Below are positions 2,778-61,200 of a stretch of DNA of 64,000 bases, one piece after another (positions within the stretch are counted from its first letter, which is position 1; each line of letters begins with the position of its first letter). Under the pieces are notes generated by a model. It was not told the DNA's origin and did no database searches. It was given only the letters and a program-made list of their open reading frames with translations. The position numbers and the translations under genes are program-made. Origin of the DNA: an uncultured Nitrospirota bacterium (GTDB lineage Bacteria; Nitrospirota; Thermodesulfovibrionia; Thermodesulfovibrionales; JdFR-85); the NCBI GenBank assembly GCA_964515925.1, contig CAZEYP010000005.1, positions 276 to 64,275 on the forward strand, in the 5' to 3' direction.

Positions 2778-5237
2778 ATGGATATAACCACAACCCTGTC
2801 AGATACAGCTCTTTTGTGGCAGACACTTGATGCCCTGGGGCTTTCTGCATTCACTACTGATAAAGAACTCTGCATACAGGACTGTAATCATACCGTTTCA
2901 AAAAAATTCTCTTACAGAAGAGACGAGCTCCTTGGACTGAACATAAACTTTCTTATTACAACCCCTTCTCTTAAACCATCCTTTTTGACAGACCAGATTC
3001 ATGTGTTTGATGGAAGGTGCTTGAAAAAAGACAGAGAGGCATTTCCTGCAAAAATTACAATTATACCAGGGGATGAAGGCTTCACCGTTATTGTGGAAGA
3101 TATTACCAATACCCTTAAGATTGCTCAGCGTGCTACCCAGAGAAGACGAGAAATCAACACCTATAACCAGCTATCCATAATATTGAGTCAGTCTAAGACA
3201 CTTAAAGAACTCACCGAATCAGTCGTAGACGGCCTTGTAAATACACTCAATGTGGATGGAGCCTGGATATATCTACTGGATGATGAGACAGGGGAGTTAA
3301 GGCTTTGTTGTTCAAAGGGTATAAAGGATGGAGCCTTTGACGAAGCTCGTTTTCTTAAGCCCTACGAATGCTTCATAGGAAGAGTACTTAGTGCTGGCAG
3401 GGCACTTCTTGTCAGGGATGCAAGGAAGGACCCCCGTATAACACATATTAAACTTAACGAGCTTGACTTCAGAACAATTGCAGGAGTGCCTCTGAAGGTC
3501 AAGTCCATTGATACCTCCTCATGGAGAATAGTTGGAGTGCTCGGGGTAGGTAAGAAAGAGTCTGCAAGCTTTACATCACTTGATATGCAATTCCTTTCCA
3601 CCATTGGCAACCACCTTGGTGTTGCAATAGAGAATTTAAAGCTTTTAGACAATCTCAAGGAAAAAATGAAACAGATAGAGCTTATAAACGAAATTGCATC
3701 GGTTGTGAATTCAAGCCTTAGCATTGGTCATATATTCAGAATAGTTGCATCAGAGCTAAGGGGAATGATTAATTTCGATAGGGCAAGTATAAATATCATC
3801 GAAGAGCATAAAAATCGCCAGAAGATATTTGCCCTGGATACAAGGCTTGAAACAAATCTTCCAAGGGGAATGTACGCCCCTTTAGAGGGGACAAGTTCGG
3901 GCTGGGCAGCCTTAAACCAGAAACCCTTCATAAACAGGGACTTAAAAAGGGAGATTAGATTCCCCCATGATGAAAAGCTGCTTAATGAAGGTATAAGATC
4001 AACCATCAGCATTCCTCTTTATAAAGACAGGCCCCTTGGCACACTGAATTTTGATAGCCTGGAGCCAGATAGATATTCTGAAAAGGATATTGAAATACTC
4101 ATCCCCATATCTAAACATCTTTCAATAGCACTGGAAAATGCACTGCTTTTTGAAGAGATAACAAAGGAGAAAAGACAGTGGGAAAAGACCTTCGATGCCA
4201 TTACAGACCTTGTATGGATAGAAGACCTGGAAGGCAGGGTATTAAGGGTTAACAGAACCGTTATTGAAAAGTCAGGCAAACCAGAACTCTCACTTATAAA
4301 AAAGGACTCCTCTGAAATAATGAAGCTCCTTAACATTCAACATGATGATAAGGAGTCTAAAGGGACAGGAAAAGAGAGAAAGAGGATTTATAAAGAACTG
4401 ATTGGTATTGACGGAACATCCTATCATTACTGGACCTACCCCCTGATGGATAGCGAGGGCAGGGTCTATGGAACCGTTAATTATATCAGGGATGTTACAG
4501 AGCAAAAAAGGCTTGAACAAAAGCTCATCCGTGCTGACAAACTGGCATCCCTCGGCACATTGATAGCTGGTGTTGCCCATGAGATTAATAATCCACTGGG
4601 CATAATTGCTGGCTACTCAGAGGCACTTCTTGAAAGGTCCTCGGAGAAAGAGCTTCGCAACATTGAAGCATTCAAGGATTTCCCCGAATATCTTGAAACC
4701 ATAAACAGGGAAATCTTCAGATGCAAAAATATCCTGTCAAGTCTGCTTGACTTTGCCCGTCCTACATCAGGAACACGACGATTAATCAATCTCAATGAGC
4801 TTATTAAAGAGGTTATTCTACTTGTAAACCATAGAGCCCGAAAGTTAAGTCACACAATAAAATTAGACCTGAGCGATAGGATTCCAGAAATTATGGCCGA
4901 CCCTAGCGCATTAAGACAGCTCTTTATGAACATAATAATGAACTCCCTCTACTTTATGAAAAAAAAGGGTAAAGTAACTGTAGTTACCAGATTGGAAGGA
5001 AAGGCAAAGAGTAAAAATGTAGTGGTGAAGATCAAAGACAACGGTATAGGCATAAAAAAGGAAGACCTGTATAAGGTTTTTGATCCATTTTTTACTACCA
5101 AACCAGTGGGAGAAGGCACCGGACTTGGGCTTTCAATATGTCACAGGATTGTTACTGAACACAGAGGCACAATAGATGTTGACAGCATACCTGGCAAAGG
5201 AACTACCTTTACTATTTCACTACCGGTAGAAAGTTAG
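2778..5237 (+). CDS. Cytoplasmic multi-domain sensor histidine kinase (PAS-GAF-GAF-PAS-HisKA-HATPase)
   Basis: 819 aa. H-box AHEINNPLGII, G-boxes DNGIGI and GTGLGLSI, no TM segments, long GAF-like repeats. Confidence 0.85.
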   Translation: MDITTTLSDTALLWQTLDALGLSAFTTDKELCIQDCNHTVSKKFSYRRDELLGLNINFLITTPSLKPSFLTDQIHVFDGRCLKKDREAFPAKITIIPGDEGFTVIVEDITNTLKIAQRATQRRREINTYNQLSIILSQSKTLKELTESVVDGLVNTLNVDGAWIYLLDDETGELRLCCSKGIKDGAFDEARFLKPYECFIGRVLSAGRALLVRDARKDPRITHIKLNELDFRTIAGVPLKVKSIDTSSWRIVGVLGVGKKESASFTSLDMQFLSTIGNHLGVAIENLKLLDNLKEKMKQIELINEIASVVNSSLSIGHIFRIVASELRGMINFDRASINIIEEHKNRQKIFALDTRLETNLPRGMYAPLEGTSSGWAALNQKPFINRDLKREIRFPHDEKLLNEGIRSTISIPLYKDRPLGTLNFDSLEPDRYSEKDIEILIPISKHLSIALENALLFEEITKEKRQWEKTFDAITDLVWIEDLEGRVLRVNRTVIEKSGKPELSLIKKDSSEIMKLLNIQHDDKESKGTGKERKRIYKELIGIDGTSYHYWTYPLMDSEGRVYGTVNYIRDVTEQKRLEQKLIRADKLASLGTLIAGVAHEINNPLGIIAGYSEALLERSSEKELRNIEAFKDFPEYLETINREIFRCKNILSSLLDFARPTSGTRRLINLNELIKEVILLVNHRARKLSHTIKLDLSDRIPEIMADPSALRQLFMNIIMNSLYFMKKKGKVTVVTRLEGKAKSKNVVVKIKDNGIGIKKEDLYKVFDPFFTTKPVGEGTGLGLSICHRIVTEHRGTIDVDSIPGKGTTFTISLPVES

Positions 5238-5294: not shown

Positions 5295-6644
5295 ATGGAA
5301 AACAGAAATATAAATATACTTGTTGTAGATGATGAGGAGCCTGTCAGAAGGCTCCTTAAGAATGAACTCAGCAGAAAAGGCTTTCTTGTTGATACTGCCT
5401 CAAATGGCACAGTGGCACTGAACAAACTGAAGGAACACAACTTCGATATAGTCCTTTTAGATATTGTTATGCCTGAACTTGATGGGATCTCTTTTCTAAA
5501 AAAACTCAAGAAAGACCCATCATCTCCTGCAATCATAGTACTTACCGGCAGGGCAACCGTTGATACTGCTGTAGAGGCAATGAAAAACGGAGCCACCGAT
5601 TATCTATCAAAGCCTTACAAACTGGAAGAGCTTGTTCTGGTCATCAGGAAGGCCTTTGAAGAACGGCGACTCCGCCTCGAAAATATAATGCTTCAGCACG
5701 CTCTTAAGGAACAGTTTGAACCCAGAGAATTTGTAGGTAAAGGCAAATTATATAAGGAGTTAATTGAATATATTAAAAAGGTTGCCCCTACCGACTCAAG
5801 TGTGCTCATAGTTGGTGAAAGTGGAACCGGCAAGGAGCTGGTGGCCCGGCTTGTCTGGAAATATAGCAACAGGGCATCGGGCCCTTTTCTGGCACTTAAC
5901 TGTGCAACCCTTTCAGAGAGTCTTATTGAAAGCGAACTTTTTGGTCATGAAAAAGGCGCTTTCACCAATGCATTTAAGATAAAGTACGGACTTGTCGAGG
6001 CTGCAGACAAGGGCACACTCTTTCTTGACGAAATTGCAGAGATGCCGCAGCAGCTACAGGCCAAACTCCTCAGATTTCTCGACTCTGGTGAGTTCCGCAG
6101 GGTGGGAGGAACCAAGAATCTGCGAGTTGATGTAAGAATAATAGCTGCAACAAATAAACGGCTTGAAGAGCTTATTAAAAAAGGGGACTTCAGAAATGAT
6201 CTATATTACAGATTGAATGTTATCAATATCGAGCTTCCACCCTTAAGGGATCGCATAGAAGATATTGTTCCTCTTGTTAATCACTTTATAAAAAAGTACA
6301 ACCACAAATTTACAAAAAACATAAGAGGAATTGAAAACTCAGCACTGTCGCTGCTCAAGAGATATAAATGGCCAGGGAATGTGAGGGAGCTTGAAAATGT
6401 TATTGAGCGTGCTGTGATCCTTTGTGATGGAGAGAGGATTAAAACAGAACACCTAACTCTACCCTGTTCAAACCTCTCCGATACAGAGCCTGACTCTTTA
6501 AAACTCGCGGATATGGAAAAAAGGCACATTGTCAGGGTATTAGAGAAGACAGGCTGGAATCAGTCGAAGGCAAGCAGGCTGCTTGGTATAGACAGGAAGA
6601 CCCTTTACCTGAAGATAAAAAGATATGGTATTGAAAGGTTTTGA
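5295..6644 (+). CDS. Sigma54-dependent response regulator (NtrC family: REC-AAA+-Fis HTH)
   Basis: 449 aa. Receiver DIVLLDIVMP, Walker A GESGTGKE, GAFTNA loop, WPGNVRELEN, C-terminal HTH (NQSKASRLLGIDRKTLY). Confidence 0.9.
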   Translation: MENRNINILVVDDEEPVRRLLKNELSRKGFLVDTASNGTVALNKLKEHNFDIVLLDIVMPELDGISFLKKLKKDPSSPAIIVLTGRATVDTAVEAMKNGATDYLSKPYKLEELVLVIRKAFEERRLRLENIMLQHALKEQFEPREFVGKGKLYKELIEYIKKVAPTDSSVLIVGESGTGKELVARLVWKYSNRASGPFLALNCATLSESLIESELFGHEKGAFTNAFKIKYGLVEAADKGTLFLDEIAEMPQQLQAKLLRFLDSGEFRRVGGTKNLRVDVRIIAATNKRLEELIKKGDFRNDLYYRLNVINIELPPLRDRIEDIVPLVNHFIKKYNHKFTKNIRGIENSALSLLKRYKWPGNVRELENVIERAVILCDGERIKTEHLTLPCSNLSDTEPDSLKLADMEKRHIVRVLEKTGWNQSKASRLLGIDRKTLYLKIKRYGIERF

Positions 6645-49247: not shown

Positions 49248-50146
49248 AAAGGGATTTTCTTAGACTCTGGGACCTTTCAGAGGATGAAATCCTCTCCCTT
49301 ATAAAAAGGGCAATTGACCTGAAAAGAGGTGTTGATGCAGGGAGATGTCCACTTATCGGAAAGAGCATCGGCCTTATATTTGAAAAACCATCCACCCGAA
49401 CAAGGGTCTCCTTTGAAGTTGGTATTTACCAGTTGGGTGCACAACCTGTTTACATGAGACCTGAAGAGATACAGCTTGGCAGAGGCGAAACAATATCTGA
49501 CACTGCAAAGGTTCTATCAAGATACCTTGATGGGATTATGATCAGAACCTTTGGTCATGAGAGGCTTGAGGAATTTGCCAGCGCATCCACTGTGCCGGTT
49601 ATCAACGGATTAAGCGACCTCCACCACCCCTGCCAGGCACTGGCTGATGTAATGACGATTTATGAGAAAAAGGGCAAACTAAAGGGTATCAAAGTTGCCT
49701 ATATCGGAGATGGAAACAATGTGGCAAACTCCCTTGTGGAGGCTGCTGGAAGGCTCGGATTTACCCTTACCCTGGCAACCCCTGAAGGTTATGAACCAGA
49801 TGCCGAGGTGCTTGAAACTGCTCGCACAGGAAAGGGAGATATAATTTTACTTAGCGACCCTAAGGAAGCAGCCGGCATGTCAGATGTTATGTATACTGAT
49901 GTCTGGGTTAGCATGGGAGAGGAATCAGAAGCTGAAAAGAAGAAAGGTAGATTCAAAAACTATCAGATAAACTCCTCACTGCTTTCCTGTGCTAAGCCTG
50001 ATGTGATAGTTATGCACTGTCTTCCTGCACACAGGGGAGAAGAGATTACCGATGAGGTAATCGACGGCCCAAACAGCGTGGTCTTCGACCAGGCTGAAAA
50101 CCGTCTCCATGCCCAGAAGGCACTAATGGAGATGCTCATTGCATAG
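49244..50146 (+). CDS. argF: Ornithine carbamoyltransferase
   Basis: 300 aa. STRTRVSFE, HPCQALAD and HCLPAHRGEE. Confidence 0.9.
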   Translation: MKRDFLRLWDLSEDEILSLIKRAIDLKRGVDAGRCPLIGKSIGLIFEKPSTRTRVSFEVGIYQLGAQPVYMRPEEIQLGRGETISDTAKVLSRYLDGIMIRTFGHERLEEFASASTVPVINGLSDLHHPCQALADVMTIYEKKGKLKGIKVAYIGDGNNVANSLVEAAGRLGFTLTLATPEGYEPDAEVLETARTGKGDIILLSDPKEAAGMSDVMYTDVWVSMGEESEAEKKKGRFKNYQINSSLLSCAKPDVIVMHCLPAHRGEEITDEVIDGPNSVVFDQAENRLHAQKALMEMLIA

Positions 50147-51785
50147 CCTTAACATTATTCCCCTTGGTGGGGTTGAAGAAATAGGGCTGAACTGTACAGT
50201 ATTTGATTGCAACCAAGACATCCTGGTGGTCGATGCAGGGTTAATGTTTCCCGAAGAAGACATGCCAGGGGTAGATATTGTTATTCCTGACTTTACCTAT
50301 CTTATTGAAAACCGTGACCGTATCAGGGCACTTATACTGACACATGGGCATGAAGATCATACTGGTGCAGTACCCTTTTTGCTGAAGGAACTTGGAAGGG
50401 AGATACCAGTATATGGAACTGCGCTTACCCTTGGTCTGCTACATGAAAAACTTATCGAACACCGGGTAAAGGCCAACCTTATAACAGTAAAGCCAAGAGA
50501 CAAAATCAGTATAGGTTGTTTTGAGGTAGAATTCATCAGGGTGACCCACAGCATTGTAGATGGTGTTGGACTTGCAATCGGTACACCTTACGGATATGTG
50601 GTGCATACAGGCGACTTCAAGTTAGACCCCACTCCTGTTGATGGAGAGCTCCTTGATTTCAACAGATTCTCCTATTACGGTGATATTGGAACGCTGGTGC
50701 TTCTTTCTGACAGCACAAACGCTGAGAAAGGCGGCTTTACCTTTTCTGAAAAAGAGGTTCGCAGGGCACTTGAAAATATATTTAGCAGGGCAACAGGAAG
50801 GATAATCATTGCTACCTTTGCCTCAAATATTCATCGAATCCAGCAGATTGTAGATGTAAGCATACAACATGGCAGAAAGCTCTCACTCTGCGGAAAAAGC
50901 ATCCTATCTAACGCAAAGATCGCCCTGGAACTCGGGTACCTGAAGATGCCTGAAGGCACATGGTTGAGGCTTCAGGATATAATGATGCTGCCTGATGAAC
51001 AGATTGTACTTATCACCACAGGCAGTCAGGGTGAACCAATGAGCGTTCTCTCAAGAATTGCCATGGATGAACACAAAGACATAAAGATAAAACCCAATGA
51101 TACGGTGGTACTTTCAGCCAAAATGATACCCGGTAATGAACGGGCAATCGGTAGGATTATTAATCATCTCTTCAGGAGAGGGGCAAATGTCTTATATGAA
51201 AAGGTTTCGGAAGTACATGTATCCGGACATGCTTCAAAGGAAGAACTGAAGTTAATGTTGAATCTGATAGGGCCTAAATACTTTGTGCCTGTTCATGGTG
51301 AATACCGACATCTTTCCTATCATGCCATGCTTGCAACCAAGCAGGGCATCCCGGAAGAAAATATCTTCATTCTCCAGAACGGAGATGTGCTGAGTATAAA
51401 CGACCAGGAAGCCTCAATCTCTGGTCATGTACATGCTGGTAGGGTGTTTATCGACGGCAAGGGTGGAATCGAGGATCTGGTCCTTCGCGACAGACGAAGG
51501 CTTGCACATGATGGCATAGTGGTTATCATTATTGGCATGGAGAAGCCGGGAAAGGTTATCATCGGACCTGACATAGTATCGAAGGGCTTTGTTATGGAAG
51601 AAAGTTCTCCAGATATTATCAACGAAATAAAAGAGGCCATATTGGAACAATTAAAAGTGCTGGACGAAGAGATACTTGAAGATAGTTCTGTATTGAAAGC
51701 TCGTCTCAGAAGCAGCGTAAAGAAATTTATACAGAAAAAGATGAACCGACGCCCCATGGTAGTGCCTATTATATTTGAAATTTAG
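50139..51785 (+). CDS. rnj: Ribonuclease J
   Basis: 548 aa. Metallo-beta-lactamase HGHEDH motif, beta-CASP layout, and an 8-nt overlap with argF. Confidence 0.9.
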   Translation: MHSLNIIPLGGVEEIGLNCTVFDCNQDILVVDAGLMFPEEDMPGVDIVIPDFTYLIENRDRIRALILTHGHEDHTGAVPFLLKELGREIPVYGTALTLGLLHEKLIEHRVKANLITVKPRDKISIGCFEVEFIRVTHSIVDGVGLAIGTPYGYVVHTGDFKLDPTPVDGELLDFNRFSYYGDIGTLVLLSDSTNAEKGGFTFSEKEVRRALENIFSRATGRIIIATFASNIHRIQQIVDVSIQHGRKLSLCGKSILSNAKIALELGYLKMPEGTWLRLQDIMMLPDEQIVLITTGSQGEPMSVLSRIAMDEHKDIKIKPNDTVVLSAKMIPGNERAIGRIINHLFRRGANVLYEKVSEVHVSGHASKEELKLMLNLIGPKYFVPVHGEYRHLSYHAMLATKQGIPEENIFILQNGDVLSINDQEASISGHVHAGRVFIDGKGGIEDLVLRDRRRLAHDGIVVIIIGMEKPGKVIIGPDIVSKGFVMEESSPDIINEIKEAILEQLKVLDEEILEDSSVLKARLRSSVKKFIQKKMNRRPMVVPIIFEI

Positions 51786-51816
51786 GCTCTATTATTTTAA
51801 AATTAATGTTATCTCT

Positions 51817-52836
51817 ATGATAAGCAACTCAAGAAAATATATATTATTGTTTGTTGCAATCTCGGCGACACTGTCCATACTCTCATGCGTTGAGATCAAA
51901 AAATCCCATCCTGTCTTAAAGATCAAAGAATACGAGCGACTCATTGCAGGCAGGCTTGATGCTGATTATGTTGGCACCCGGGCATGTCTTTCAGCCTGCC
52001 ATGCCCATGACAACATAAAGAGGGCCTTTGATGCAAGCACAATGGGGGCTCAGATGAAGGGTAACACCGGTATGCCCATGGTGGACTGTGAATCCTGCCA
52101 CGGCCCCGGAAGTCTTGCCATCAAGGGAATCACAAAGAAACTGGTTGAAGAAAACAGAAAAAGGGGGATAAAAACCACCTGTAATTACAAGACATTGATA
52201 GATATAAAAAATCTTCCAGCGCCGGCAAAGAGCCTTATCTGTCTAAAATGCCACACCGCCAATGCAACCTTCAACCTTCATGAATGGAACACTGGCATAC
52301 ACGCAATAAACGATGTCTCCTGCCCCGACTGTCATAAGATCCACAGTGGCCCTGACCTGAAGGTAAAACCGATAGATACTGCTGAGATGTGCTTTAAGTG
52401 TCATCAGGATATTCGTGCTTACTACAGCATGCCCAACCATCATCCCGTAGTTGAGAAAAAGATGTTCTGTACAGACTGTCACAACCCTCATGGCACCACA
52501 ACTGAACATCTACTGAAAAGAGAAACCGTGAGAAAGACCTGTACCCAGTGTCATGGAGAAAAACAGGGTCCCTATCTTTACGAACATGGTGACCTTACCG
52601 AGGAGTGCACAACCTGTCACCTACCCCACGGCTCACCAAATAATAATCTTCTTAAAGTCAGAGAGCCATTCCTGTGTCTTGAGTGTCATGAAACTCATAC
52701 TATAAACACCACTACAGGACAGGTCATATCAACCACAACCAAGCAGTACTTCTTCACACGTTGCACTGACTGCCACAGTTCAATACATGGCACAGACACT
52801 CCTTCTCCATCCGGAAACGGGAGGTTCATACAGTGA
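51817..52836 (+). CDS. Decahaem c-type cytochrome, MtrA/DmsE-like, with lipoprotein-type signal peptide
   Basis: Nine CXXCH motifs plus one CX3CH (CLSACH). C-terminal CTDCHSSIHG. Signal MISNSRKYILLFVAISATLSILSC. The ORF-track start at 51775 is a TTG inside the rnj end. Confidence 0.85.
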   Translation: MISNSRKYILLFVAISATLSILSCVEIKKSHPVLKIKEYERLIAGRLDADYVGTRACLSACHAHDNIKRAFDASTMGAQMKGNTGMPMVDCESCHGPGSLAIKGITKKLVEENRKRGIKTTCNYKTLIDIKNLPAPAKSLICLKCHTANATFNLHEWNTGIHAINDVSCPDCHKIHSGPDLKVKPIDTAEMCFKCHQDIRAYYSMPNHHPVVEKKMFCTDCHNPHGTTTEHLLKRETVRKTCTQCHGEKQGPYLYEHGDLTEECTTCHLPHGSPNNNLLKVREPFLCLECHETHTINTTTGQVISTTTKQYFFTRCTDCHSSIHGTDTPSPSGNGRFIQ

Positions 52837-54770
52837 AAAAGACAGTTAGGGTAATAGGCACACTGCTGGTCTTCCTTTCCTTTGGATTTACTGCAACTGC
52901 AGAGGAACTTAAGCTCCCTACCTATCCCCCTACTTATCGTCTAAGTGTTGGAACCAGTCTAAAACACCTTGCTGGAAACCCAAGGGTATCAGAGTATGAG
53001 GATACCACTGATAATATTTACCTCTTTACAGACATAAGGTCATACCCACTCCCTCACAGGTTTCATCTTTTTGGTTATTTCTCTGGTGAGCATGACTATT
53101 TTGTTGACACTGGATACGCCTACAGAGACATCCTTCTGTATAGACTTGTATCAGTCGGGTTTGTACATCATACTGACCACTATCCATACGATTTAAAAGC
53201 CCCCTCACCAGTGCAACAGTACGAAGACAGAGATCCCGATGACGATTATATGCAGGATATTAGAAAAACAAAACTGAAATTAAGACTGAAATGGCCCAAT
53301 TACCCGCTTCATTTATTCTTCCGATACTCCGATTACCACCATAAGGGCAACCTTCAGCAGCGTTTTCTGATAGGATACTTTGGTAATATGAATAAAGTTT
53401 CCCAGTCAAGGAGTCTGACTAAAGATACCAGTGAGTTCAAGATTGGCACAAATGGTCATCTTGGCCCTGTAGAGCTTGAATACTTCCATATTGAAAGACA
53501 TTTTGATTCATCAAGAGATACCATTTTACAGGATGATTATCCAGAAATAAATAGTCCTCCAATTATTTATAGACCTGCAGACATTTATCCACATAATATA
53601 TACCCTGACATTAAGGGCCATGGCGATTCGTTGAAGATTCACACCTCCTATACAGGACAGATTGTTGCATCCTACTCTGTAATGGGAGATGTCTTAAGAA
53701 ACCTCTACAGTGGAGTAAAAAGAAAGACACTTCGCTCCTCAGCAACCCTTCAGTACATGCCATCTCATATCATTGCAATGTTCTTAAGGATGAATTATCT
53801 CAACATAGAAGAATCAAACACCTCATATACAGTGCTGAGGGGGCTTCAGAATCAACTCACCTACGATGTAAGAAAATCCATAGACATTGAAAAAAAGACG
53901 GTTCATCTCATAAGCCGTATCAGACCGATAAAAGACCTCACCCTTATACCATCCTATAGTATAGAAATCAAAAAGAGAACCGATACAGAGGGATGGACAC
54001 TTTCAGAAGGAGATACAACCACCCAGAGCTACAAACTGAAGGTGCTCTCAAAACCTGTCAGGAATTTAAGCATTAGAGCTGCTTACAGTCATAGCCATAC
54101 CAAAAACCCACTCTACAACTTTATACCTGAAGACAGGGACCGAATCAAACTCTATTTTTCCTATTTACCCTTGCCTCCTGTACAATTAATCGCATCCTAT
54201 ACATTTTCACATTCCAGAAGAGGTAATGTTAGTTATTATGATGACCTTACAGGGTCCTTTTATGAAGGAAAGGACAAAAAGGGCACCCATCACTTCCTTG
54301 TTATTACTGCATCCACAACTCCTGTTTATAATCTAAGCATCACCGCTTCTGTGGGTTACTACCGTGTAAAGGAGACCTCCTGTCTTGCTTTTAAACAACT
54401 GAAGGGAGATGGCACCTTTACCTTTGTACAGCCCTTTATGGAGCATTCTGTCCCCTATAAAGACAGGGCAATTACATATATGTTAAACATAACGAGACGG
54501 TTCAGCAATAGATGGAATGTTTCAGTAGATATCTCAGCAACCTATTCTAAAGGAAGTTTCCATACATCCACCGATACCCTTTCGGGTATTGATGGGTTTT
54601 CAAAGATCAACAATCGCGACAGCACTATTAAACTCAGTTCCAGTTATAAACTACTTAAAGATACCTCTATTGGTCTTGAGTTACTTTACGAGTCTTACAG
54701 TGACAGGGTAAACCCTGATCTTAATGGAAGGTTATACAGAGGGCTGATACGGTTAACCAAAAACCTTTAA
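52833..54770 (+). CDS. Large outer-membrane beta-barrel protein, MtrB/PioB-like by context
   Basis: 645 aa. Signal peptide MKKTVRVIGTLLVFLSFGFTATA, no TM helices, Tyr/Ser/Thr-rich alternating strands. A GTGA overlap links it to the cytochrome stop. Confidence 0.6.
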   Translation: MKKTVRVIGTLLVFLSFGFTATAEELKLPTYPPTYRLSVGTSLKHLAGNPRVSEYEDTTDNIYLFTDIRSYPLPHRFHLFGYFSGEHDYFVDTGYAYRDILLYRLVSVGFVHHTDHYPYDLKAPSPVQQYEDRDPDDDYMQDIRKTKLKLRLKWPNYPLHLFFRYSDYHHKGNLQQRFLIGYFGNMNKVSQSRSLTKDTSEFKIGTNGHLGPVELEYFHIERHFDSSRDTILQDDYPEINSPPIIYRPADIYPHNIYPDIKGHGDSLKIHTSYTGQIVASYSVMGDVLRNLYSGVKRKTLRSSATLQYMPSHIIAMFLRMNYLNIEESNTSYTVLRGLQNQLTYDVRKSIDIEKKTVHLISRIRPIKDLTLIPSYSIEIKKRTDTEGWTLSEGDTTTQSYKLKVLSKPVRNLSIRAAYSHSHTKNPLYNFIPEDRDRIKLYFSYLPLPPVQLIASYTFSHSRRGNVSYYDDLTGSFYEGKDKKGTHHFLVITASTTPVYNLSITASVGYYRVKETSCLAFKQLKGDGTFTFVQPFMEHSVPYKDRAITYMLNITRRFSNRWNVSVDISATYSKGSFHTSTDTLSGIDGFSKINNRDSTIKLSSSYKLLKDTSIGLELLYESYSDRVNPDLNGRLYRGLIRLTKNL

Positions 54771-54784
54771 GGGGGCAAAAATCT

Positions 54785-55720
54785 TTGAAGACAATAAAAG
54801 CCACATTGGTATTGTTTGTTTTTCTGGGATTTATACTTTGGGCTCCTTTAAAAAATTACGCTCAGAAAACCATACAGGTAGGAGTTGTCTTCTCAACCGA
54901 TATACCTTATTATAAGGAGCTACATAAAAGATTCATAAAAATCTTAAATAATCAATTTCCTGATATTCATGTCAATGTAATCGTTCAAACTCCAAACCCG
55001 AATCCCCTTGCATGGAGCAATGCCATAAGAAAGCTACTGGTTTATGATTCCCAGATCCTGATTGTTTATGGCTCTGGAGCACTGAAGGCTGCTATTCATG
55101 AGGATGTTGATGTACCAATAATCTTTGCAGGTGCTTTCAAAACGAAACTTAATAACATTAGAGGCAAAAAACTTAGCGGTGTATTCTACAAGATACATCT
55201 AAGCAGTGTTATCAGATACATAAAAAAGATAAGGCAAACCCGACACCTTGATATTCTTTTTTCCGAAATAGAGCCATCCTCTATACAGGAGGCTAATATG
55301 TTAAAGTCACTCTGTAAGGACTTTAAAATAAACTGTTCCCTTCATGGTGTTAGTGATTACGATGAACTGTCTGATTATGTAGATAATGTCAGGGCTGATA
55401 TGGTCTTTGTGGCTGAAAGTGCACTTATTGCAAGGTTTCTTCCAGAATTTCACGAAGAGTTTAATAAAAAACTCATTCCCCTTGTAACGACTACCCCAGG
55501 TCTTGAACGAATAACTGTCTTTTCCCTTAAACCCGACATTCGATACGAAGCCAAAAGTCTTGCAGAAATCTTTGTCAATGTTATAAAGAAAAGAAAAGGT
55601 TCAAATAAAATACAAACTATAAGCAAAACCACTTTAACCTTCAATATGGGACTTGCCAAAATACTGGAGACAATGATTCCAGCAGAGCTTACATCCTACG
55701 CAGATGAGGTAATAAAATGA
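54785..55720 (+). CDS. Periplasmic binding protein (uncharacterised ABC-type substrate-binding fold), no partner permease
   Basis: 311 aa, TTG start after an AAGGGGG SD, with a signal peptide. KTIQVGVVFS... resembles the COG2984-type family. Confidence 0.5.
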   Translation: MKTIKATLVLFVFLGFILWAPLKNYAQKTIQVGVVFSTDIPYYKELHKRFIKILNNQFPDIHVNVIVQTPNPNPLAWSNAIRKLLVYDSQILIVYGSGALKAAIHEDVDVPIIFAGAFKTKLNNIRGKKLSGVFYKIHLSSVIRYIKKIRQTRHLDILFSEIEPSSIQEANMLKSLCKDFKINCSLHGVSDYDELSDYVDNVRADMVFVAESALIARFLPEFHEEFNKKLIPLVTTTPGLERITVFSLKPDIRYEAKSLAEIFVNVIKKRKGSNKIQTISKTTLTFNMGLAKILETMIPAELTSYADEVIK

Positions 55721-56610
55721 AAAAGCTGATGATGACAGTAGTGATTTCAGCAATGCTTATACAGGCAGTCTATGCTGAGACGAAGCAGCCTCTTCTAATC
55801 GGTTTAATTCCAGAGCAAAACATATTCAAACAATTTGAACGATATCTTCCTCTTGCAAGTTATCTGGATAAAAAAACAGGGATAAAGGTTAAATTTACAA
55901 TCCTGAGCAAATACGGTGATATAATTGATAGATTTACACAGAGGGGACTTGCAGGGGCATTTTTTGGTGATCTTACAGGTGCAATCGCAATCAAGAAGCT
56001 TGCAGTGGAGCCTGCTGTCACCCCGATAAATGTTTACGGTTCAAGCACATCCTATGGATTTATTATTGTCAGGAAAGACTCTGGAATATCCGGAGTAGAG
56101 GATATGCGGGGGAAAATAATGGCCTTTGTAGATAAGGCAAGCGTTGCCGGTTATTTATTCCCTATTGTTTATTTAAAGAAGCAGGGCGTTAAGGATTATA
56201 AAACCTTTTTTAGTGAATACTACTTTACTGGCGGATTTGATGCCTCGCTTTATGATGTTGTAGATGGAAGGGCAGATATAGGTTGTGTAAAAAATACCGT
56301 GCTTAACGAGATAATCCGTAAAGATCCATCGGTGATTAAAGAGATTAAGATAATCGCCCAGTCTCCTTCCATGCCAACTAATGTGCTGTGTCTGAGCAAA
56401 ACTCTTTCGCCTGAAATCAAGTCAAAGATTATCAATGCCCTGCTCGATATGGAAAACGACCCCTTTGGGGAGAATATCTTGAAAAAGATGAAGTTTAAGA
56501 GGTTTATCAGAGCCTATGAAGACAACTTTTTACCTGTTTATCGTCTTCTTTATGAAATTCACGAAAAACCAGAAACCTATGACTATAAAATCAATGATAA
56601 ACTTCAATGA
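55717..56610 (+). CDS. PhnD-like (phosphonate-type) periplasmic binding protein, no partner permease
   Basis: 297 aa with a signal peptide. Contains PLLIGLIPEQNIFKQFERYLPLASYL... and ADIGCVKN. An ATGA overlap links it to the previous gene. Confidence 0.6.
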   Translation: MKKLMMTVVISAMLIQAVYAETKQPLLIGLIPEQNIFKQFERYLPLASYLDKKTGIKVKFTILSKYGDIIDRFTQRGLAGAFFGDLTGAIAIKKLAVEPAVTPINVYGSSTSYGFIIVRKDSGISGVEDMRGKIMAFVDKASVAGYLFPIVYLKKQGVKDYKTFFSEYYFTGGFDASLYDVVDGRADIGCVKNTVLNEIIRKDPSVIKEIKIIAQSPSMPTNVLCLSKTLSPEIKSKIINALLDMENDPFGENILKKMKFKRFIRAYEDNFLPVYRLLYEIHEKPETYDYKINDKLQ

Positions 56611-56643
56611 ACTTTGCATATATTGTAACCTTAACTTAGTAAA

Positions 56644-58623
56644 ATGCTAAAAAGAATCGTAAAATATCTATTTATCCTGTTTCTCCTTTTCAGTATAGGA
56701 GGGGGAGTCGCTATATACTCTCTTTCAAGGGTAACCAGACAGCTGGAAACCCTGATAAAGCTCCATCGTGTTGAGATAATCAGACAGAATCTAATTATTA
56801 ACCTCAAGACCGTACAGAGCAATCTCTTCACCCTTGGCACAACATTTGGTCCTGAGCTTGATGTTATTGTAAGGAATGTTATATCTCTTAATGCTGCAAT
56901 AAACAGGTGTTCAGGCTGTCACCATTCCGAAGAGATTGCCTCCAAGTTGCGCAACCTGAAAAATCTCATAGAAGACTATAAAGGGGCAATCAGTGTTTTC
57001 ATTACCACCACTGCCAACCCGGCAAGAGTGAAACGATTGAAACAGGTTGCAGTTGATATTGGAGACATATTGCTTTCTAAGGCCGAAGAAATGACCTATA
57101 TAGCTCACAAAAGACTTCAACAGAGGACACAGAAGGCACTTAAAGAGGTAGGAATAATCAGGTATATACTCTTTTTTAGTCTTCTTGGCACTATGCTTAT
57201 GGGCTTTGTCGTTGCAAAGGGGCTTACCAGTGAGATAGTTACCCCGGTGAAGAAGCTTTCTGAAGCTGCAAGGAAACTAAAGTCAGGTGTGCTTGGTTAT
57301 ACAGTAAAAATAGACGACCGGACAGAACTTGGCGAGCTTGCCAATGCCTTCAACGACATGAGTCTTTCCATAAAAAAGGGACACGAGCAGACACTGAACT
57401 ATATGCAAAAACTGAAAGGCCTCCATAACCTTGCCCTGTCACTTCACATGGTATCAAAGGAAACAGATATTTATAATGAATTGATACAGGGACTGTCGGA
57501 AATAATAACAGCTAATGAATATGTGCTATACCTGAAGTCAGACAGGAAGTATGAAGTGGTGGCTTCTCTTGAGAACACCGACAATGTGCTTACCTTTACT
57601 GGCAGTTTTTCAGAAGAGATAATTCGTGAACTGTTTGAAGAAAGCGGAAAAAAGGCAATTGTTTCATACAGATCTGACCCTGAGTCACAAACCCTGCTTC
57701 CTGATGAGCTAAAACATTACGAAAACCTCTGTATAATGTGGATAACGGAAAGAAATCAGCTCATCGGTTTCTTACTCATAGCTGACATCCAGAAGGAAGA
57801 AATAACCGAGGATGATATCAGACTGCTTAGCATTATAGTGAATAACTTTTCTGTTGCCATGGAAAACATCCGTCTTTATAAAAACCTTATGGTTCAGATG
57901 CAAAAATTAAAAGAAGCCCAGGAACAGCTTGTTCAGGCAGCTAAACTTGCGGCCATTGGTGAGCTTGCTGCCAACATCGCCCATGAAATAAACAATCCTC
58001 TTACCACAATACTTGGCTATACAGAGCTGTTGAAAGAAGAGGATGATATGGAGGGGATTAAAAATGACCTTAAAATAATCGAAAGTGAATCTCTGAGAGC
58101 GAGAGAGATTGTCCAGCAGCTTCTTGAATTCTCAAGGCGTCGTCCTCTTAAGATCGAACCGGTTAACATTGATGAATTGCTGGACGACATAAAAAAACTT
58201 GTACTTCCTAATATGAGAGAAAAGCAGATAAAGCTTATTGAAGAAAAATCACACATCCCTGTTATTGAAGGCGACAGGAATCAATTAAAACAGGTCTTCC
58301 TTAATCTGATTAACAATGCGCTGCAGGCAATGCAAAAAGAAGGCACCTTAAAAATAGTAACAGGAGAAAAAGAGGGTTTTGTATTTGTAGAGATAACCGA
58401 CAATGGTACAGGAATACCTGACGAAATACTACCAAGGATATTTGAACCTTTCTTTACCACCAAGAAAGACAGGGGAACCGGATTAGGACTACCAATTAGT
58501 TACAGGATTGTAGAAAACCATGGTGGCAGAATCGAGGTTAAAAGCAAGGTAAATACAGGAACAACCTTCAGGGTATATCTACCAACAAGGGTTCCAAGTG
58601 AGAAAAAAACAGTAGGAGTCTAA
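56644..58623 (+). CDS. Membrane sensor histidine kinase (periplasmic CXXCH domain-HAMP-GAF-HisKA-HATPase)
   Basis: 659 aa. TM1 YLFILFLLFSIGGGVAIYSL, CSGCH at residues 89-93, TM2 YILFFSLLGTMLMGFVVA, H-box AHEINNPLTTI, G-boxes DNGTGI and GTGLGL. Confidence 0.85.
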   Translation: MLKRIVKYLFILFLLFSIGGGVAIYSLSRVTRQLETLIKLHRVEIIRQNLIINLKTVQSNLFTLGTTFGPELDVIVRNVISLNAAINRCSGCHHSEEIASKLRNLKNLIEDYKGAISVFITTTANPARVKRLKQVAVDIGDILLSKAEEMTYIAHKRLQQRTQKALKEVGIIRYILFFSLLGTMLMGFVVAKGLTSEIVTPVKKLSEAARKLKSGVLGYTVKIDDRTELGELANAFNDMSLSIKKGHEQTLNYMQKLKGLHNLALSLHMVSKETDIYNELIQGLSEIITANEYVLYLKSDRKYEVVASLENTDNVLTFTGSFSEEIIRELFEESGKKAIVSYRSDPESQTLLPDELKHYENLCIMWITERNQLIGFLLIADIQKEEITEDDIRLLSIIVNNFSVAMENIRLYKNLMVQMQKLKEAQEQLVQAAKLAAIGELAANIAHEINNPLTTILGYTELLKEEDDMEGIKNDLKIIESESLRAREIVQQLLEFSRRRPLKIEPVNIDELLDDIKKLVLPNMREKQIKLIEEKSHIPVIEGDRNQLKQVFLNLINNALQAMQKEGTLKIVTGEKEGFVFVEITDNGTGIPDEILPRIFEPFFTTKKDRGTGLGLPISYRIVENHGGRIEVKSKVNTGTTFRVYLPTRVPSEKKTVGV

Positions 58624-59279
58624 ACCTTCTTTACAAATATCTCCTTTGCAATCTCAGGGTCAAGGGCAACGGTAGTTTCCTCAACCTGTACAACCACAGA
58701 AGGCCATTTCTGAAGTAGCTTTACAACAGAGCCAGCATTTATTCCAATTGAATTCAACCTGTTAAGCCTTGAAGGGTCTGAAGGAACTATGTATACAATT
58801 CTACCCTCCTGTCCTACCTCAAAATCATTCAAACGCATCACAAGAGGTTTTATCTCAACACTGTATTTTTTACAGCATTCTCCCCTTGGAATAGGTTTTC
58901 CATGAGGACAGGTTGGAGGATGTCCAAGAAAGGTACATACACTGTCTGTTAACTCTTCACTTAAAATATGCTCCATCTTGCAGGCATCTTCGTGTATGAA
59001 CTCCTCCTTCATCTCAAAAACATCGGCGAAAAGCCTCTCAGCAAGTCTATGTCTTCTGACAATGCCCCTTGCAATCTCCTCCCCCTCTGCAGTAAGCCTT
59101 ATATCATCACCTTCAACCTTCACAAGTCCTCTTTTTCTGAGCCTTGCGACAACAGCCTCTATCTCTTCATCGTCAGAGTAACCATAAAGACGTTTTAAGC
59201 CGCTTTTGCCTTCTTCCTCTAAAAGCCAGATAAGCTCCAGCGCTTCCTCAAGTCTCTCCTCATCAAAGTTTTTGTGCAT
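58620..59279 (-). CDS. DtxR/MntR-family metal-dependent regulator with C-terminal FeoA-like domain
   Basis: 219 aa. wHTH N-terminus, RRHRLAERLF dimerisation helix, Cys/His-rich metal site (CTFLGHPPTCPHG), and an SH3-like tail. Confidence 0.8.
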   Translation of the reverse strand: MHKNFDEERLEEALELIWLLEEEGKSGLKRLYGYSDDEEIEAVVARLRKRGLVKVEGDDIRLTAEGEEIARGIVRRHRLAERLFADVFEMKEEFIHEDACKMEHILSEELTDSVCTFLGHPPTCPHGKPIPRGECCKKYSVEIKPLVMRLNDFEVGQEGRIVYIVPSDPSRLNRLNSIGINAGSVVKLLQKWPSVVVQVEETTVALDPEIAKEIFVKKV

Positions 59280-59321
59280 TGTTTAGTTTAAAAATTCTCC
59301 CCTGATGAAATCAAATGTGGT

Positions 59322-59520
59322 TTATTGGTTATTGCGTTATGTGCGTTAATAGCGTTAATTGGGTTAATTGAGTTAATTGCGTTTATTGCGTTGATAGCGT
59401 TTTTTGAGTTCTTTGTGTTCATTGCGTTTATTGTGTTTAAGGCTACCACCCTACCCCCTACACCCTGTCTTTTTTTACCCCCTACCCGCAACACCCTACA
59501 CCCTACTCCCTGTCTTTTTT
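59322..59520. repeat. Composite array: 14 nonamers then CCCTACN heptamers; contains the 87-nt core
   Basis: Nonamer register spans 59322-59447 and heptamers span 59448-59520. The recJ stop and its last codons lie inside the array. Confidence 0.9.
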
Positions 59521-61200
59521 AGCAGGTCTCAGGGTCTTTAGTCTTAGCTGAAGGAATCTTCCTCCATCCCATTCGTTTATCTGCGGGAAGAACACTGCAT
59601 CAACCCTGCCACTTTCTGCAATATGCTGAAACCTATCAGCCATATCGAACCCAATAACATCAAGAACTATGTTCTGATCCCTCAAAGACATCTTGAGATG
59701 ATTGTTGCCCACCACCCGTGCATTAAGCACCTCAAGTCCCTTTGCACCAAAAAGAGGCTCTGGATTTCCTGCACCAAAGGGTTCAAGCCTTTGTATTTCC
59801 TTTACCAACTCATAACTTACATCCCTGAACCTCACCTGGGCATCTATCGTCAGGGTTGGAATCAGGTCATCGTCGGTTAACATACCTGCTATTGTTTCGT
59901 TTATCCTTTCCTCGAACTCAGATAACCTATCTGCCTTTAATCTAAGTCCGGCAGCCTGTTTGTGTCCACCAAAGCCATCGAGCAGATCAGAGCACTTACT
60001 GATGGCATCATATAGATTCAAAGGAGGAATGCTTCGAGCAGAACCTTTTGCATGGCCATCGTTAAGATTAAACACAAAGGCAGGTCTGTAGAACTGCTCG
60101 GCAAGTCTTGCTGCCACAATTCCCACCACCCCTTCGTGCCATCCCTCCTGAGCACAGACAATAGCAAAGTCAAAACCCCTATACTCAACCTCCTGGCGTG
60201 CTGCACCAAGCACCTCTTCCTCTATCTGCTGTCTTCTCTGATTCAACTCGTTAAGTCTGGCAGCAATTTCCATTGCTTCTTCATAATCGTTGGTGGTAAG
60301 CATCCTTATAACATCTCTTGCATGGTCAATCCTTCCCGATGCATTGATCCTGGGAATAAGGGTAAACCCAAGGAGCCCTGCTGTCACATTGCCTGGTTTT
60401 ATGCCCGAAACCTCTGTGAGAGCACGAATACCAGGTCTAACCGCAGAGTTAATAAGTCCCAACCCTTCTTTCACAATAACTCTTGCTTCATCTACAAGAG
60501 GAATTACATCTGCCACAGTGCCAAGCGTTACAAGATCAAGCATTGAACGAACATTATCCCTACCGAGCAGTGCCTCTGCAAGTTTATAGGCAACCATCAC
60601 CCCTGACATGGCAGGCATATCCGTCTGAAGTCGAGGGTTTATCACCACATCTGCCCCCGGCAGAACAGGCTTGCCTTCGGAGGTTCTTTTAGGTTCATGA
60701 TGATCAGTAACTATTACCCCGATACCTTCAGAGCGTGCCTGTTTTATGGTATCAAAGGAGGTTATTCCACAATCCACGGTTACTATCAAAGAGGCTGAAA
60801 TCTCTTTTGCAAAGGCAAGTCCTCCCTGGCCAAAACCGTATCCATCGGCAAATCTATCAGGAATGTAATAATAGACATCGGCACCAAGCTCTTTGAGGGT
60901 GCTTATCATCACCGATGTAGCAGTAACGCCATCGGTGTCGTAATCACCGTGGATCAGGATTGGTCTGTTACTGGCTATGGTGGAAAGGATTATCTCCTTT
61001 GCTTCCTTGACCCCAGCAAGCTCGAAAGGTGCGCCCATGATGTTAATATCAGGGCAGAGAAATCGCTTTACAGCCTCTGGTGTCTTTATACCACGATTTA
61101 TAAGTATCTGGGCCAGAGGGGTGGTAATCCCGGTAGTGGCAGAAAGGTACTTAATATATTCGGGGTTTGTTCTCTGAACAAACCATCTACGCTCTGGCAT
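59503..61200 (-). CDS. recJ: Single-stranded-DNA-specific exonuclease RecJ
   Basis: 565 aa. DHH motifs (HGDYDTDG, VTDHH) and a DHHA1 domain (GGHKQAAG). Confidence 0.9.
   Translation of the reverse strand: MPERRWFVQRTNPEYIKYLSATTGITTPLAQILINRGIKTPEAVKRFLCPDINIMGAPFELAGVKEAKEIILSTIASNRPILIHGDYDTDGVTATSVMISTLKELGADVYYYIPDRFADGYGFGQGGLAFAKEISASLIVTVDCGITSFDTIKQARSEGIGVIVTDHHEPKRTSEGKPVLPGADVVINPRLQTDMPAMSGVMVAYKLAEALLGRDNVRSMLDLVTLGTVADVIPLVDEARVIVKEGLGLINSAVRPGIRALTEVSGIKPGNVTAGLLGFTLIPRINASGRIDHARDVIRMLTTNDYEEAMEIAARLNELNQRRQQIEEEVLGAARQEVEYRGFDFAIVCAQEGWHEGVVGIVAARLAEQFYRPAFVFNLNDGHAKGSARSIPPLNLYDAISKCSDLLDGFGGHKQAAGLRLKADRLSEFEERINETIAGMLTDDDLIPTLTIDAQVRFRDVSYELVKEIQRLEPFGAGNPEPLFGAKGLEVLNARVVGNNHLKMSLRDQNIVLDVIGFDMADRFQHIAESGRVDAVFFPQINEWDGGRFLQLRLKTLRPAKKDRE

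Follow-up and report, generated by a model that had tools for sequence, protein, structure and literature searches.

The DNA considered here is a 64-kb stretch of contig CAZEYP010000005.1 from an uncultured Nitrospirota bacterium, which we call the window in its whole length. Its positions 54785 to 58623 carry three co-directional genes, encoding two periplasmic substrate-binding proteins (SBP1 and SBP2) and a sensor histidine kinase anchored in the membrane, directly after the genes for a decahaem c-type cytochrome and an outer-membrane barrel-type protein (Table 1). The open reading frame (ORF) coordinates agree exactly with those of an initial annotation made from the letters alone, which had read the conduit and the sensory genes as one functional unit. 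We think it rather probable that the three genes are the receptor half of a five-gene operon, which works as a single conduit-coupled periplasmic sensing unit. The earlier interpretation is essentially right and can now be put more generally: the cassette occurs in two phyla, and the sensor domain of the kinase belongs to a new family. What is said below on the function of the cassette is a set of predictions drawn from sequences and structural models.

Table 1. Coordinates of the cassette genes, of the predicted elements within the kinase and of other genes mentioned in the text (window numbering)
Feature	Position	Strand	Remarks
Decahaem cytochrome	51775..52836	+	TIGR03508 match; first gene of the five-gene cassette
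Outer-membrane barrel-type protein	52833..54770	+	PF11854 match; 4-nt overlap with the cytochrome gene
SBP1	54785..55720	+	PF04392; 14-nt gap after the barrel gene
SBP2	55717..56610	+	PF12974; 4-nt overlap with the SBP1 gene
Sensor histidine kinase	56644..58623	+	33-nt gap after the SBP2 gene; TM1-sensor-TM2-HAMP-GAF-HisKA-HATPase_c
Periplasmic four-helix-bundle sensor domain	56734..57144 (aa 31-167)	+	Predicted (AlphaFold2 model); CxxCHH family
His41 codon, candidate distal haem ligand, alpha-1	56764..56766	+	His in 130/139 members
CSGCHH, putative covalent haem-c site with invariant second His	56908..56925 (aa 89-94)	+	Invariant in 139/139
Met150 codon, alternative candidate distal ligand, alpha-4	57091..57093	+	Met in 110/139 members
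HAMP	57226..57375 (aa 195-244)	+	PF00672, 44.1 bits
GAF (GAF_3)	57466..57867 (aa 275-408)	+	PF13492, 28.2 bits
HisKA + HATPase_c core	57958..58587 (aa 439-648)	+	PF00512, 63.7 bits; PF02518, 101.5 bits
DtxR/MntR-type regulator with FeoA-like domain	58620..59279	-	PF02742 + PF04023; convergent with the kinase gene
AtoS-like PAS histidine kinase	2778-5237		Self-contained pair with the regulator at 5295-6644
AtoC/NtrC-like sigma-54 response regulator	5295-6644		Partner of the AtoS-like PAS kinase

By hydropathy, the kinase has two transmembrane (TM) segments, at approximately residues 4-30, where the N-terminus is basic, and 168-194. Within the cytoplasmic part, HisKA spans aa 439-499 and HATPase_c aa 543-648, and the best NCBIfam similarities of this core are to AtoS and ZraS. 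The protein contains a single CXXCH motif, CSGCH (aa 89-93, nt 56908-56922), which must be periplasmic because it lies between both TM segments and ahead of the cytoplasmic HAMP domain; the AlphaFold2 (AF2) model described below gives the same topology. The initial description of a HAMP-GAF histidine kinase with a periplasmic segment of about 140 aa, in which this motif is found, is exact in its coordinates.

For the periplasmic domain, searches of Pfam (E ≤ 10), NCBIfam (E ≤ 0.01) and, by sequence, the PDB gave no match, and a word-indexed search with aa 1-200 yielded two relatives only, both featuring CxGCHHS. When 1.84 billion cluster representatives were searched exhaustively with HMMER, 264 came up at E ≤ 1e-3, 200 of these at E ≤ 1e-10. 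Each of the 151 family members listed has exactly one CXXCH, and in 134 this lies at residue 89. When 139 N-terminal domains are aligned, C89, C92, H93 and H94 are invariant throughout, while the residues between the cysteines vary, with at least 30 different combinations; the motif, the conservation of which the initial annotation had made a touchstone for its proposal, is thus kept across the family in the extended form CxxCHH. Near-invariant elsewhere in the domain are H41 (130/139), E44, R47, Q58, Y112, S117, T121 and M150 (110/139). Judged from the alignment, invariance of the framing residues combined with variability of the inner ones indicates selection on the putative haem-attachment residues themselves, and haem binding by the sensor is probable. 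Motif conservation was put to the same use in a 2026 preprint that defines sCache_heme (PMC12889525). One apparent family member devoid of the motif was discarded as an exception: the ORF start had been over-extended, and CLQCHH is present (locus L052). We consider the sensor domain an undescribed family; the string “CXXCHH” found no match in the literature, the coverage of which was incomplete.

Seventy family members were available in full length, and in all of them HAMP follows the sensor domain. Downstream of it, 53 have HisKA and HATPase_c (25 of these with an additional receiver domain) and about 33 have PAS, while GGDEF occurs in 11, EAL in seven and a sigma-54 activator domain in one. 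Being coupled to such varied outputs, the sensor domain behaves as a portable input module.

An AF2 model of the sensor, built from a 46-sequence alignment (pLDDT 91.2, pTM 0.75), predicts four helices at residues 2-63, 72-90, 96-121 and 126-197, the first TM segment running on into alpha-1 and alpha-4 running on into the second. The modelled domain is an antiparallel bundle of four helices, flanked by two TM helices and followed by HAMP, of the Tar/NarX/4HB_MCP type; it is all-alpha, without the alpha-beta fold of Cache and PAS domains, and no PF11845 match is found. The top domain-sized Foldseek matches are the Adeh_2942 kinase (4K0D) and the Vc1313 ligand-binding domain (8BSA), with TMt 0.77 each. 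The LytS N-terminal part in the XylFII-LytS complex (5XSD) aligns with TMt 0.80 and a root-mean-square deviation of 2.2 A, and lower matches include NarQ and PcaY (TM 0.34-0.58); the E-values are weak, as is usual with helical bundles.

The model places CxxCHH in the alpha2-alpha3 turn. H93 and H94, H41 on alpha-1 and M150 on alpha-4 would all sit about 21-24 residues below the tip of the bundle, which puts them beneath the short alpha2-alpha3 hairpin, a little way above the membrane. M150 and H41 occur together in 102 of the 139 members. From this arrangement, we infer that a haem may fill a membrane-proximal pocket, with H93 as the proximal ligand and H41, H94 or M150 on the distal side.

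The product of the gene directly upstream of the kinase, SBP2, had been called PhnD-like, and PF12974 recognises it at 180.9 bits (cut-off, 27). Its score against the PhnD equivalog model TIGR03431 is below the cut-off (154.6 vs. 261.1). Its closest relatives in the PDB are PtxB (9e-23), a PhnD-like protein, ArrX (7e-19), AioX (1e-15) and PhnD. In the HMMER alignments, the STSS of the phosph(on)ate-binding region in PtxB is replaced by SVAG in SBP2 and by SFSG in ArrX; the comparison with the arsenic-oxyanion sensor was confined to this SxxG segment. The replacement of STSS, together with the sub-threshold PhnD score, argues that SBP2 is not the binding protein of a phosphonate transporter. 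SBP2 is predicted to be a secreted, sensor-type binding protein of the PhnD family like AioX and ArrX and the partner of the CxxCHH sensor. Among 83 orthologues (median identity, 43%), conservation reaches at least 85% at some 60 SBP2 positions. A phmmer search of the PDB also aligned its central lobe (aa 103-162) weakly with ovotransferrin and serum transferrin (E ~2e-4); these matches probably reflect the common type II binding-protein fold and not iron binding.

SBP1 is more divergent. It exceeds the PF04392 cut-off barely (28.3 bits vs. 25.9), falls far short of the TrpX equivalog model (NF041285, 33 bits vs. 390) and has no match by sequence in the PDB. An AF2 model built from eight aligned sequences (pLDDT 84.4) matched 3LFT, 3LKV and 6HNI in Foldseek at E ~1e-16 (1.4e-16) with TM 0.76-0.85, which predicts a type I periplasmic binding protein fold like that of the PF04392-family structures 3LFT (complex with L-Trp), 3LKV and CD0873. 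Family match and fold matches bear out the former assignment as COG2984-like, and we regard SBP1 as a predicted secreted PF04392/COG2984-type periplasmic binding protein without a transporter. Its orthologues diverge faster than those of SBP2 (median identity, 26%), with a conserved core being kept.

The first two genes appear to encode a conduit. By its match to TIGR03508 (246.4 bits; cut-off, 192.2), the cytochrome is predicted to belong to the MtrA/DmsE family of decahaem c-type cytochromes; its translation contains nine CXXCH motifs and one CLSACH (CX3CH), and exactly ten haem motifs are found in 106 of 113 orthologues. The longest ORF begins with a TTG at 51775 and overlaps the stop codon of the upstream RNase J gene by 11 nt; the public (JGI) gene call begins with an ATG at 51817 (339 aa), which is likely the true start. 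From this ATG, the signal peptide would end in a possible lipobox, ILSC, so that the cytochrome may be a lipoprotein, unlike the soluble MtrA. The barrel-type protein is, on profile similarity, a remote relative of MtrB/PioB and of the GSU2204 family: PF11854 matches aa 491-625 only (40.7 bits; cut-off, 23), and the scores against TIGR03509 (21.4 vs. 240) and NF041027 (79.4 vs. 350) are below the cut-offs. A hydrophobic N-terminal segment that, by eye, fits a signal peptide is present in the barrel protein, and signal-peptide-like segments were likewise seen by eye in the cytochrome, SBP1 and SBP2. In related loci, the barrel gene is always paired with a decahaem cytochrome gene.

We determined the gene order around the sensor in contigs of family members sampled across 26-55% identity and in 80 further loci from a scan that took one genome for each GTDB species. 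The seed of the scan was a nine-sequence subgroup alignment, which biases the counts toward relatives of at least 39% identity. The loci come mostly from metagenome-assembled genomes (MAGs) of Nitrospirota/Thermodesulfovibrionia and of Desulfobulbales and other Desulfobacterota; their ORFs were classified with profile hidden Markov models grown from the window proteins, and only loci with enough upstream sequence were counted. The nearest relative of the window is a Nitrospirae MAG with 94% identity.

In 78 of 84 loci, the gene directly upstream of the sensor is that of SBP2, and the order SBP1-SBP2-sensor is kept in 64 of 80. The synteny put forward initially, cytochrome-barrel-SBP1-SBP2-sensor, recurs in full in 36 of 65 loci in two phyla (15/16 in Desulfobacterota and 15/36 in Nitrospirota), which supports the view of conduit and sensing genes as one unit. 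The junctions are operon-like: SBP1 and SBP2 overlap by 1-4 nt in 59 of 66 cases, the cytochrome and barrel genes mostly do so as well, and the median distances are -4 for cytochrome/barrel, +1 nt for barrel/SBP1 and -1 for SBP2/sensor. The pairing of SBP2 with the sensor spans histidine kinase, hybrid histidine kinase and GGDEF-EAL outputs; members with 32-37% identity that have hybrid-kinase or PAS-GGDEF-EAL outputs carry a PhnD-like gene 10-16 nt upstream, and two members at 26-28% identity have none.

In one relative with 54% identity (L001), the cassette is kept in rearranged flanks, with HisG upstream, RNase J downstream on the other strand and no DtxR gene. In the same contig, the barrel gene is split into two ORFs of 243 and 336 aa (L001:3038-5052) and the kinase gene into ORFs of 221 and 449 aa (L001:6863-8843), possibly by a frameshift, pseudogenisation or an assembly error. 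A tandem second SBP2 gene and CxxCHH sensor gene follow the full cassette in L028, and a second CxxCHH sensor lies downstream in L078, next to a six-haem cytochrome on the opposite strand; these second copies imply that the sensing module duplicates locally. A distant CxxCHH hybrid kinase (28% identity; L010:378-1184 and neighbouring ORFs) has no SBP gene and adjoins multihaem cytochrome genes on the opposite strand (5-6 CXXCH; cytochrome c7/c3-type Pfam matches). Two cassette contigs are assigned to a Chlorobiaceae MAG (L087) and a Nitrospinaceae MAG (L072), which could be due to mis-binning or to horizontal transfer beyond Nitrospirota and Desulfobacterota.

The reciprocal test started from the other end of the cassette: when metagenomes were scanned with 13 aligned barrel orthologues, 80 loci with 27-40% identity were returned. 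Where 1 kb of sequence or more lies downstream, SBP1 comes after the barrel gene in 66 of 68 loci; where the sequence extends at least 1.5 kb beyond SBP1, a signalling receptor comes after it in 48 of 49. Among these 49, a PhnD-like SBP and then a CxxCHH sensor come next in 29, a methyl-accepting chemotaxis protein (MCP) directly in 19 and a PhnD-like gene only in the remaining one. The SBP1 and MCP genes typically overlap by 4 nt. In the MCPs, HAMP and MCPsignal accompany a periplasmic domain that is either sCache_3_2 or unassigned; no CXXCH was found in any of the 29 MCPs of the barrel-seeded loci. After this subfamily of cytochrome-barrel pairs, there is therefore nearly always a PF04392-type SBP, with a receptor of one of two unrelated classes behind it.

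Both SBPs had been proposed as co-sensors of the kinase. For SBP2, this is supported by its linkage to the sensor (78/84), but SBP1 is better seen as a hinge between two modules, since its tie to the cytochrome-barrel pair (66/68) is at least as tight as that to the kinase. Among the MCP loci, two independent contigs have ORFs of about 935 aa of the same architecture (HAMP, MCPsignal and a C-terminal PhnD-like Phosphonate-bd domain; L147:5971-8766 and L148:12036-14867) downstream of cytochrome-barrel-SBP1-MCP. Such a C-terminus is odd in a chemoreceptor, as an additional TM segment would be needed to keep it out of the cytoplasm. In another locus (L140:5785-8354; also L141), the MCP gene is followed on the same strand by genes for a PAS histidine kinase that is cytoplasmic and for a sigma-54 response regulator; this pair might act downstream in signalling by the MCP variant of the cassette.

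As for the neighbouring genes, the stop of the kinase gene is overlapped by 4 nt by a convergent DtxR/FeoA-domain gene, just as the initial annotation had it from the ORFs, with Pfam now confirming the DtxR type. This arrangement is found in 17 of 78 loci (13/45 in Nitrospirota and 0/20 in Desulfobacterota), and we have rejected the regulator as a member of the unit. The part of the initial proposal that concerned metal sensing leaned on this neighbour; as the link is specific to a lineage, metal sensing lacks general support. RNase J was likewise rejected as part of the transcription unit, for it is a neighbour in some Nitrospirota only and lies downstream of the kinase on the opposite strand in L001. 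Unbiased clustering of all flanking ORFs brought to light no further conserved partner, neither a response regulator nor an additional cytochrome; all that recurs, in a Nitrospirota sub-lineage, is DtxR and housekeeping genes. The lack of a response regulator next to the kinase had also been noted and is confirmed: the only receiver-domain protein in the window is some 50 kb away beside its own AtoS-like kinase. This regulator is of the NtrC/AtoC type, and the core of the CxxCHH kinase is nearest to AtoS and ZraS. Scans of 49800-59600 for promoters (27 vs. a shuffle expectation of 22±4.4) and terminators (7 vs. 8.5±2.8) were uninformative. A 68-aa ORF that the public record places between the DtxR gene and recJ (59288-59494; L002:12645-12851) has no Pfam match.

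In the mechanism that we propose, the CxxCH would covalently bind a single c-type haem where the bundle comes close to the membrane, H93 being the proximal ligand and H41, H94 or M150 the sixth. Electrons exchanged with periplasmic carriers, or with the end of the decahaem conduit that faces the periplasm, would determine the state of the haem, and a change in its redox state or ligation would be passed through the second TM helix and HAMP to the GAF-HisKA-HATPase core. SBP2 would dock on the bundle as a ligand-dependent co-sensor, in the way that AioX, ArrX, TorT, LuxP and XylFII act with their kinases, and SBP1 would couple the conduit to whichever inner-membrane receptor follows. The phosphoryl group would go to an unlinked response regulator, probably of the NtrC type because the kinase core is most like AtoS and ZraS.

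Several points weigh against a conduit-coupled sensing unit of this form. Haem attachment, redox sensitivity and the protein contacts are argued from motif conservation, fold prediction and synteny, and the putative ligation by H41 or M150 is read from the helix register of the model. The 19 MCPs that come after the cytochrome-barrel-SBP1 triad have no CXXCH (0/29): a receptor can then be coupled to the conduit without a haem of its own, and the case for direct electron transfer to the sensor is weaker. These haem-less variants argue for SBP1, rather than direct transfer to a receptor haem, as the general coupling element. Moreover, the SBP2-sensor pair has no linked conduit in 21 of the 36 Nitrospirota loci and in the distant loci L006-L008, so the sensor can work without a conduit nearby. 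Haem and SBP2 together look like a self-contained sensor, one that is found without a linked conduit as well.

The main rival of the conduit-coupled sensing unit is that the conduit is metabolic, serving respiration or Fe(II) oxidation, while the SBPs with the kinase or the MCP sense a soluble substrate, e.g., an oxyanion, to control expression or taxis. AioXSR with arsenite oxidase would be the precedent, and the haem a secondary tuning cofactor. We hold this to be rather unlikely, yet several points favour it: the cytochrome has ten haem motifs and passes the DmsE-family threshold, sensor SBPs of the PhnD family regulate respiratory arsenic enzymes, SBP2-sensor pairs occur without conduits, and an MCP gene lies inside an arsenic gene island in Agrobacterium (PMC5335332). 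However, a response regulator is linked in none of the locus classes, hence there is no local autoregulatory circuit, and no extracellular partner cytochrome of the MtrC type or inner-membrane partner cytochrome is conserved nearby. A receptor directly after 48 of 49 conduits would be unusually strict for a respiratory module that is merely regulated, and SBP1, inseparable from the conduit (66/68), is given no role. These points speak against a purely metabolic conduit but leave it the main rival.

Two further alternatives concern single components. That CxxCHH is a periplasmic metal site of the Cys2His2 type (Cu, Zn or Fe) or a CxxC thiol-disulfide switch instead of a haem site strikes us as improbable. 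Four invariant residues of metal-ligand type are indeed clustered there, the second invariant His is unnecessary for canonical haem attachment, and a DtxR-type regulator is convergent in some Nitrospirota; that linkage is, however, 0/20 in Desulfobacterota. An invariant His straight after the second Cys of C-x-x-C is the canonical haem-c signature; the family occurs in lineages rich in multihaem cytochromes, frequently within an operon that also encodes a decahaem protein, and near-invariant H41 and frequent M150 at the same predicted helix height fit axial ligands. The idea that the SBPs serve an ABC transporter encoded elsewhere, their adjacency to the kinase being incidental, can draw on the names of both families, taken from ABC substrate-binding proteins, and on ORFs with ABC-ATPase motifs near a few loci. 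We give it very little credence. As the initial annotation had pointed out, ABC genes are missing near the SBP genes: no ORF with ABC-ATPase motifs occurs anywhere in the 64-kb window. In the related loci, such ORFs are rare, none is within the contiguous cassette and most lie on the other strand; between the cassette genes, which abut or overlap, there is no room for permease genes. The SBPs travel with the sensor instead (78/84 for SBP2; 64/80 for both), and their adjacency to a receptor is conserved over two phyla and several output types. SBP2 lacks the STS motif and stays under the PhnD cut-off, and SBP1 is far under that of TrpX.

Beyond the conduit-coupled sensing unit, a bolder reading is possible, which we put forward tentatively. 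Instead of a respiratory conduit, the cytochrome-barrel-SBP1 triad might be a dedicated sensory antenna, a wire across the outer membrane that reports the redox potential or availability of insoluble extracellular donors or acceptors. SBP1 would relay its signal to interchangeable receptors: kinases or diguanylate cyclases with a haem-c four-helix bundle, which have their own haem and SBP2, or sCache chemoreceptors. If true, this would amount to hard-wired “electroreception” for gene regulation and taxis. It is an open question how redox partners that are insoluble or outside the cell, for instance minerals, electrodes and syntrophic partners, are sensed by bacteria, and the cassette suggests a hitherto undescribed means of sensing redox conditions at the cell surface or beyond it. 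Since the known covalent-haem extracytoplasmic sensors have PAS or Cache folds, the four-helix bundle with CxxCHH would, if the model is correct, constitute a second structural class beside them. The set of SBP-dependent receptors is enlarged by PhnD-type and PF04392-type partners. In metagenome surveys, members of this barrel/cytochrome subfamily should not automatically be scored as a capacity for respiratory extracellular electron transfer. We found no description of the cassette or of a four-helix-bundle haem-c sensor in the literature (coverage incomplete).

Among known systems, AioX-AioS-AioR and ArrX-ArrS-ArrR come close in that the gene for a PF12974 SBP is next to a kinase gene and not to ABC genes; AioX and ArrX are periplasmic sensor proteins that act with kinases, not transporters, and, as with SBP2 here, both systems are linked to a redox system of respiratory type (PMC5908839, PMC8050422). 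AioS is listed as sCache-like (PMC8050422), whereas the kinase here has a predicted four-helix bundle with CxxCHH. Unlike in AioXSR and ArrXSR, there is no adjacent response regulator, and the operon includes an extra PF04392-type SBP and a porin-cytochrome pair. In XylFII-LytS, TorT-TorS and LuxP-LuxQ, a transporter-independent binding protein is likewise the co-sensor of a membrane kinase, but these systems have no haem motif, involve other SBP families and show no link to an outer-membrane conduit.

The resemblance to GSU0582, GSU0935 and the sCache_heme domains (DUF3365/Tll0287) lies in an extracytoplasmic domain between two TM segments, with a strict CXXCH, fused to HAMP and to histidine kinase, MCP or GGDEF outputs (PMC12889525, PMC3831638). 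Those domains have the alpha-beta fold of PAS/Cache, with CXXCH on an inserted helix, and show no sequence match to the sensor described here. The MtrAB, PioAB and MtoAB conduits and GSU2203-GSU2204 of Geobacter share the order of a decahaem cytochrome gene followed by a large barrel-type gene; the literature on GSU2203/2204 provided expression data only. Here, however, the barrel is only distantly related, no outer cytochrome of the MtrC type is present, and the pair is followed by a PF04392 SBP (66/68) and a receptor (48/49). A phylogenomic survey of Mtr systems makes no mention of terms beginning with Nitrospir or Desulfob, nor of histidine kinase, chemotaxis, substrate-binding or sensor (PMC8805035).

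A functional parallel for the MCP-type loci, in which the conduit is paired with sCache MCPs, is the congregation of Shewanella (energy taxis around insoluble acceptors), a behavioural response to extracellular acceptors which needs mtrBC/omcA and the MCP-Cache protein SO_2240 (PMC5789149), that is, a conduit and a chemoreceptor with a Cache domain. There, the genes are unlinked, and indirect coupling via the proton motive force has been proposed (PMC5789149); in Geobacter, the esn and ext genes are likewise separate (10.1101/084228). Whereas in both genera the sensing genes are thus unlinked to the conduits and coupling is thought to be indirect (PMC5789149; 10.1101/084228), the cassette unites a porin-cytochrome pair, binding proteins and a receptor in one operon, in two phyla of sediment and subsurface anaerobes, and offers a compact system for studying signalling from conduit to receptor.

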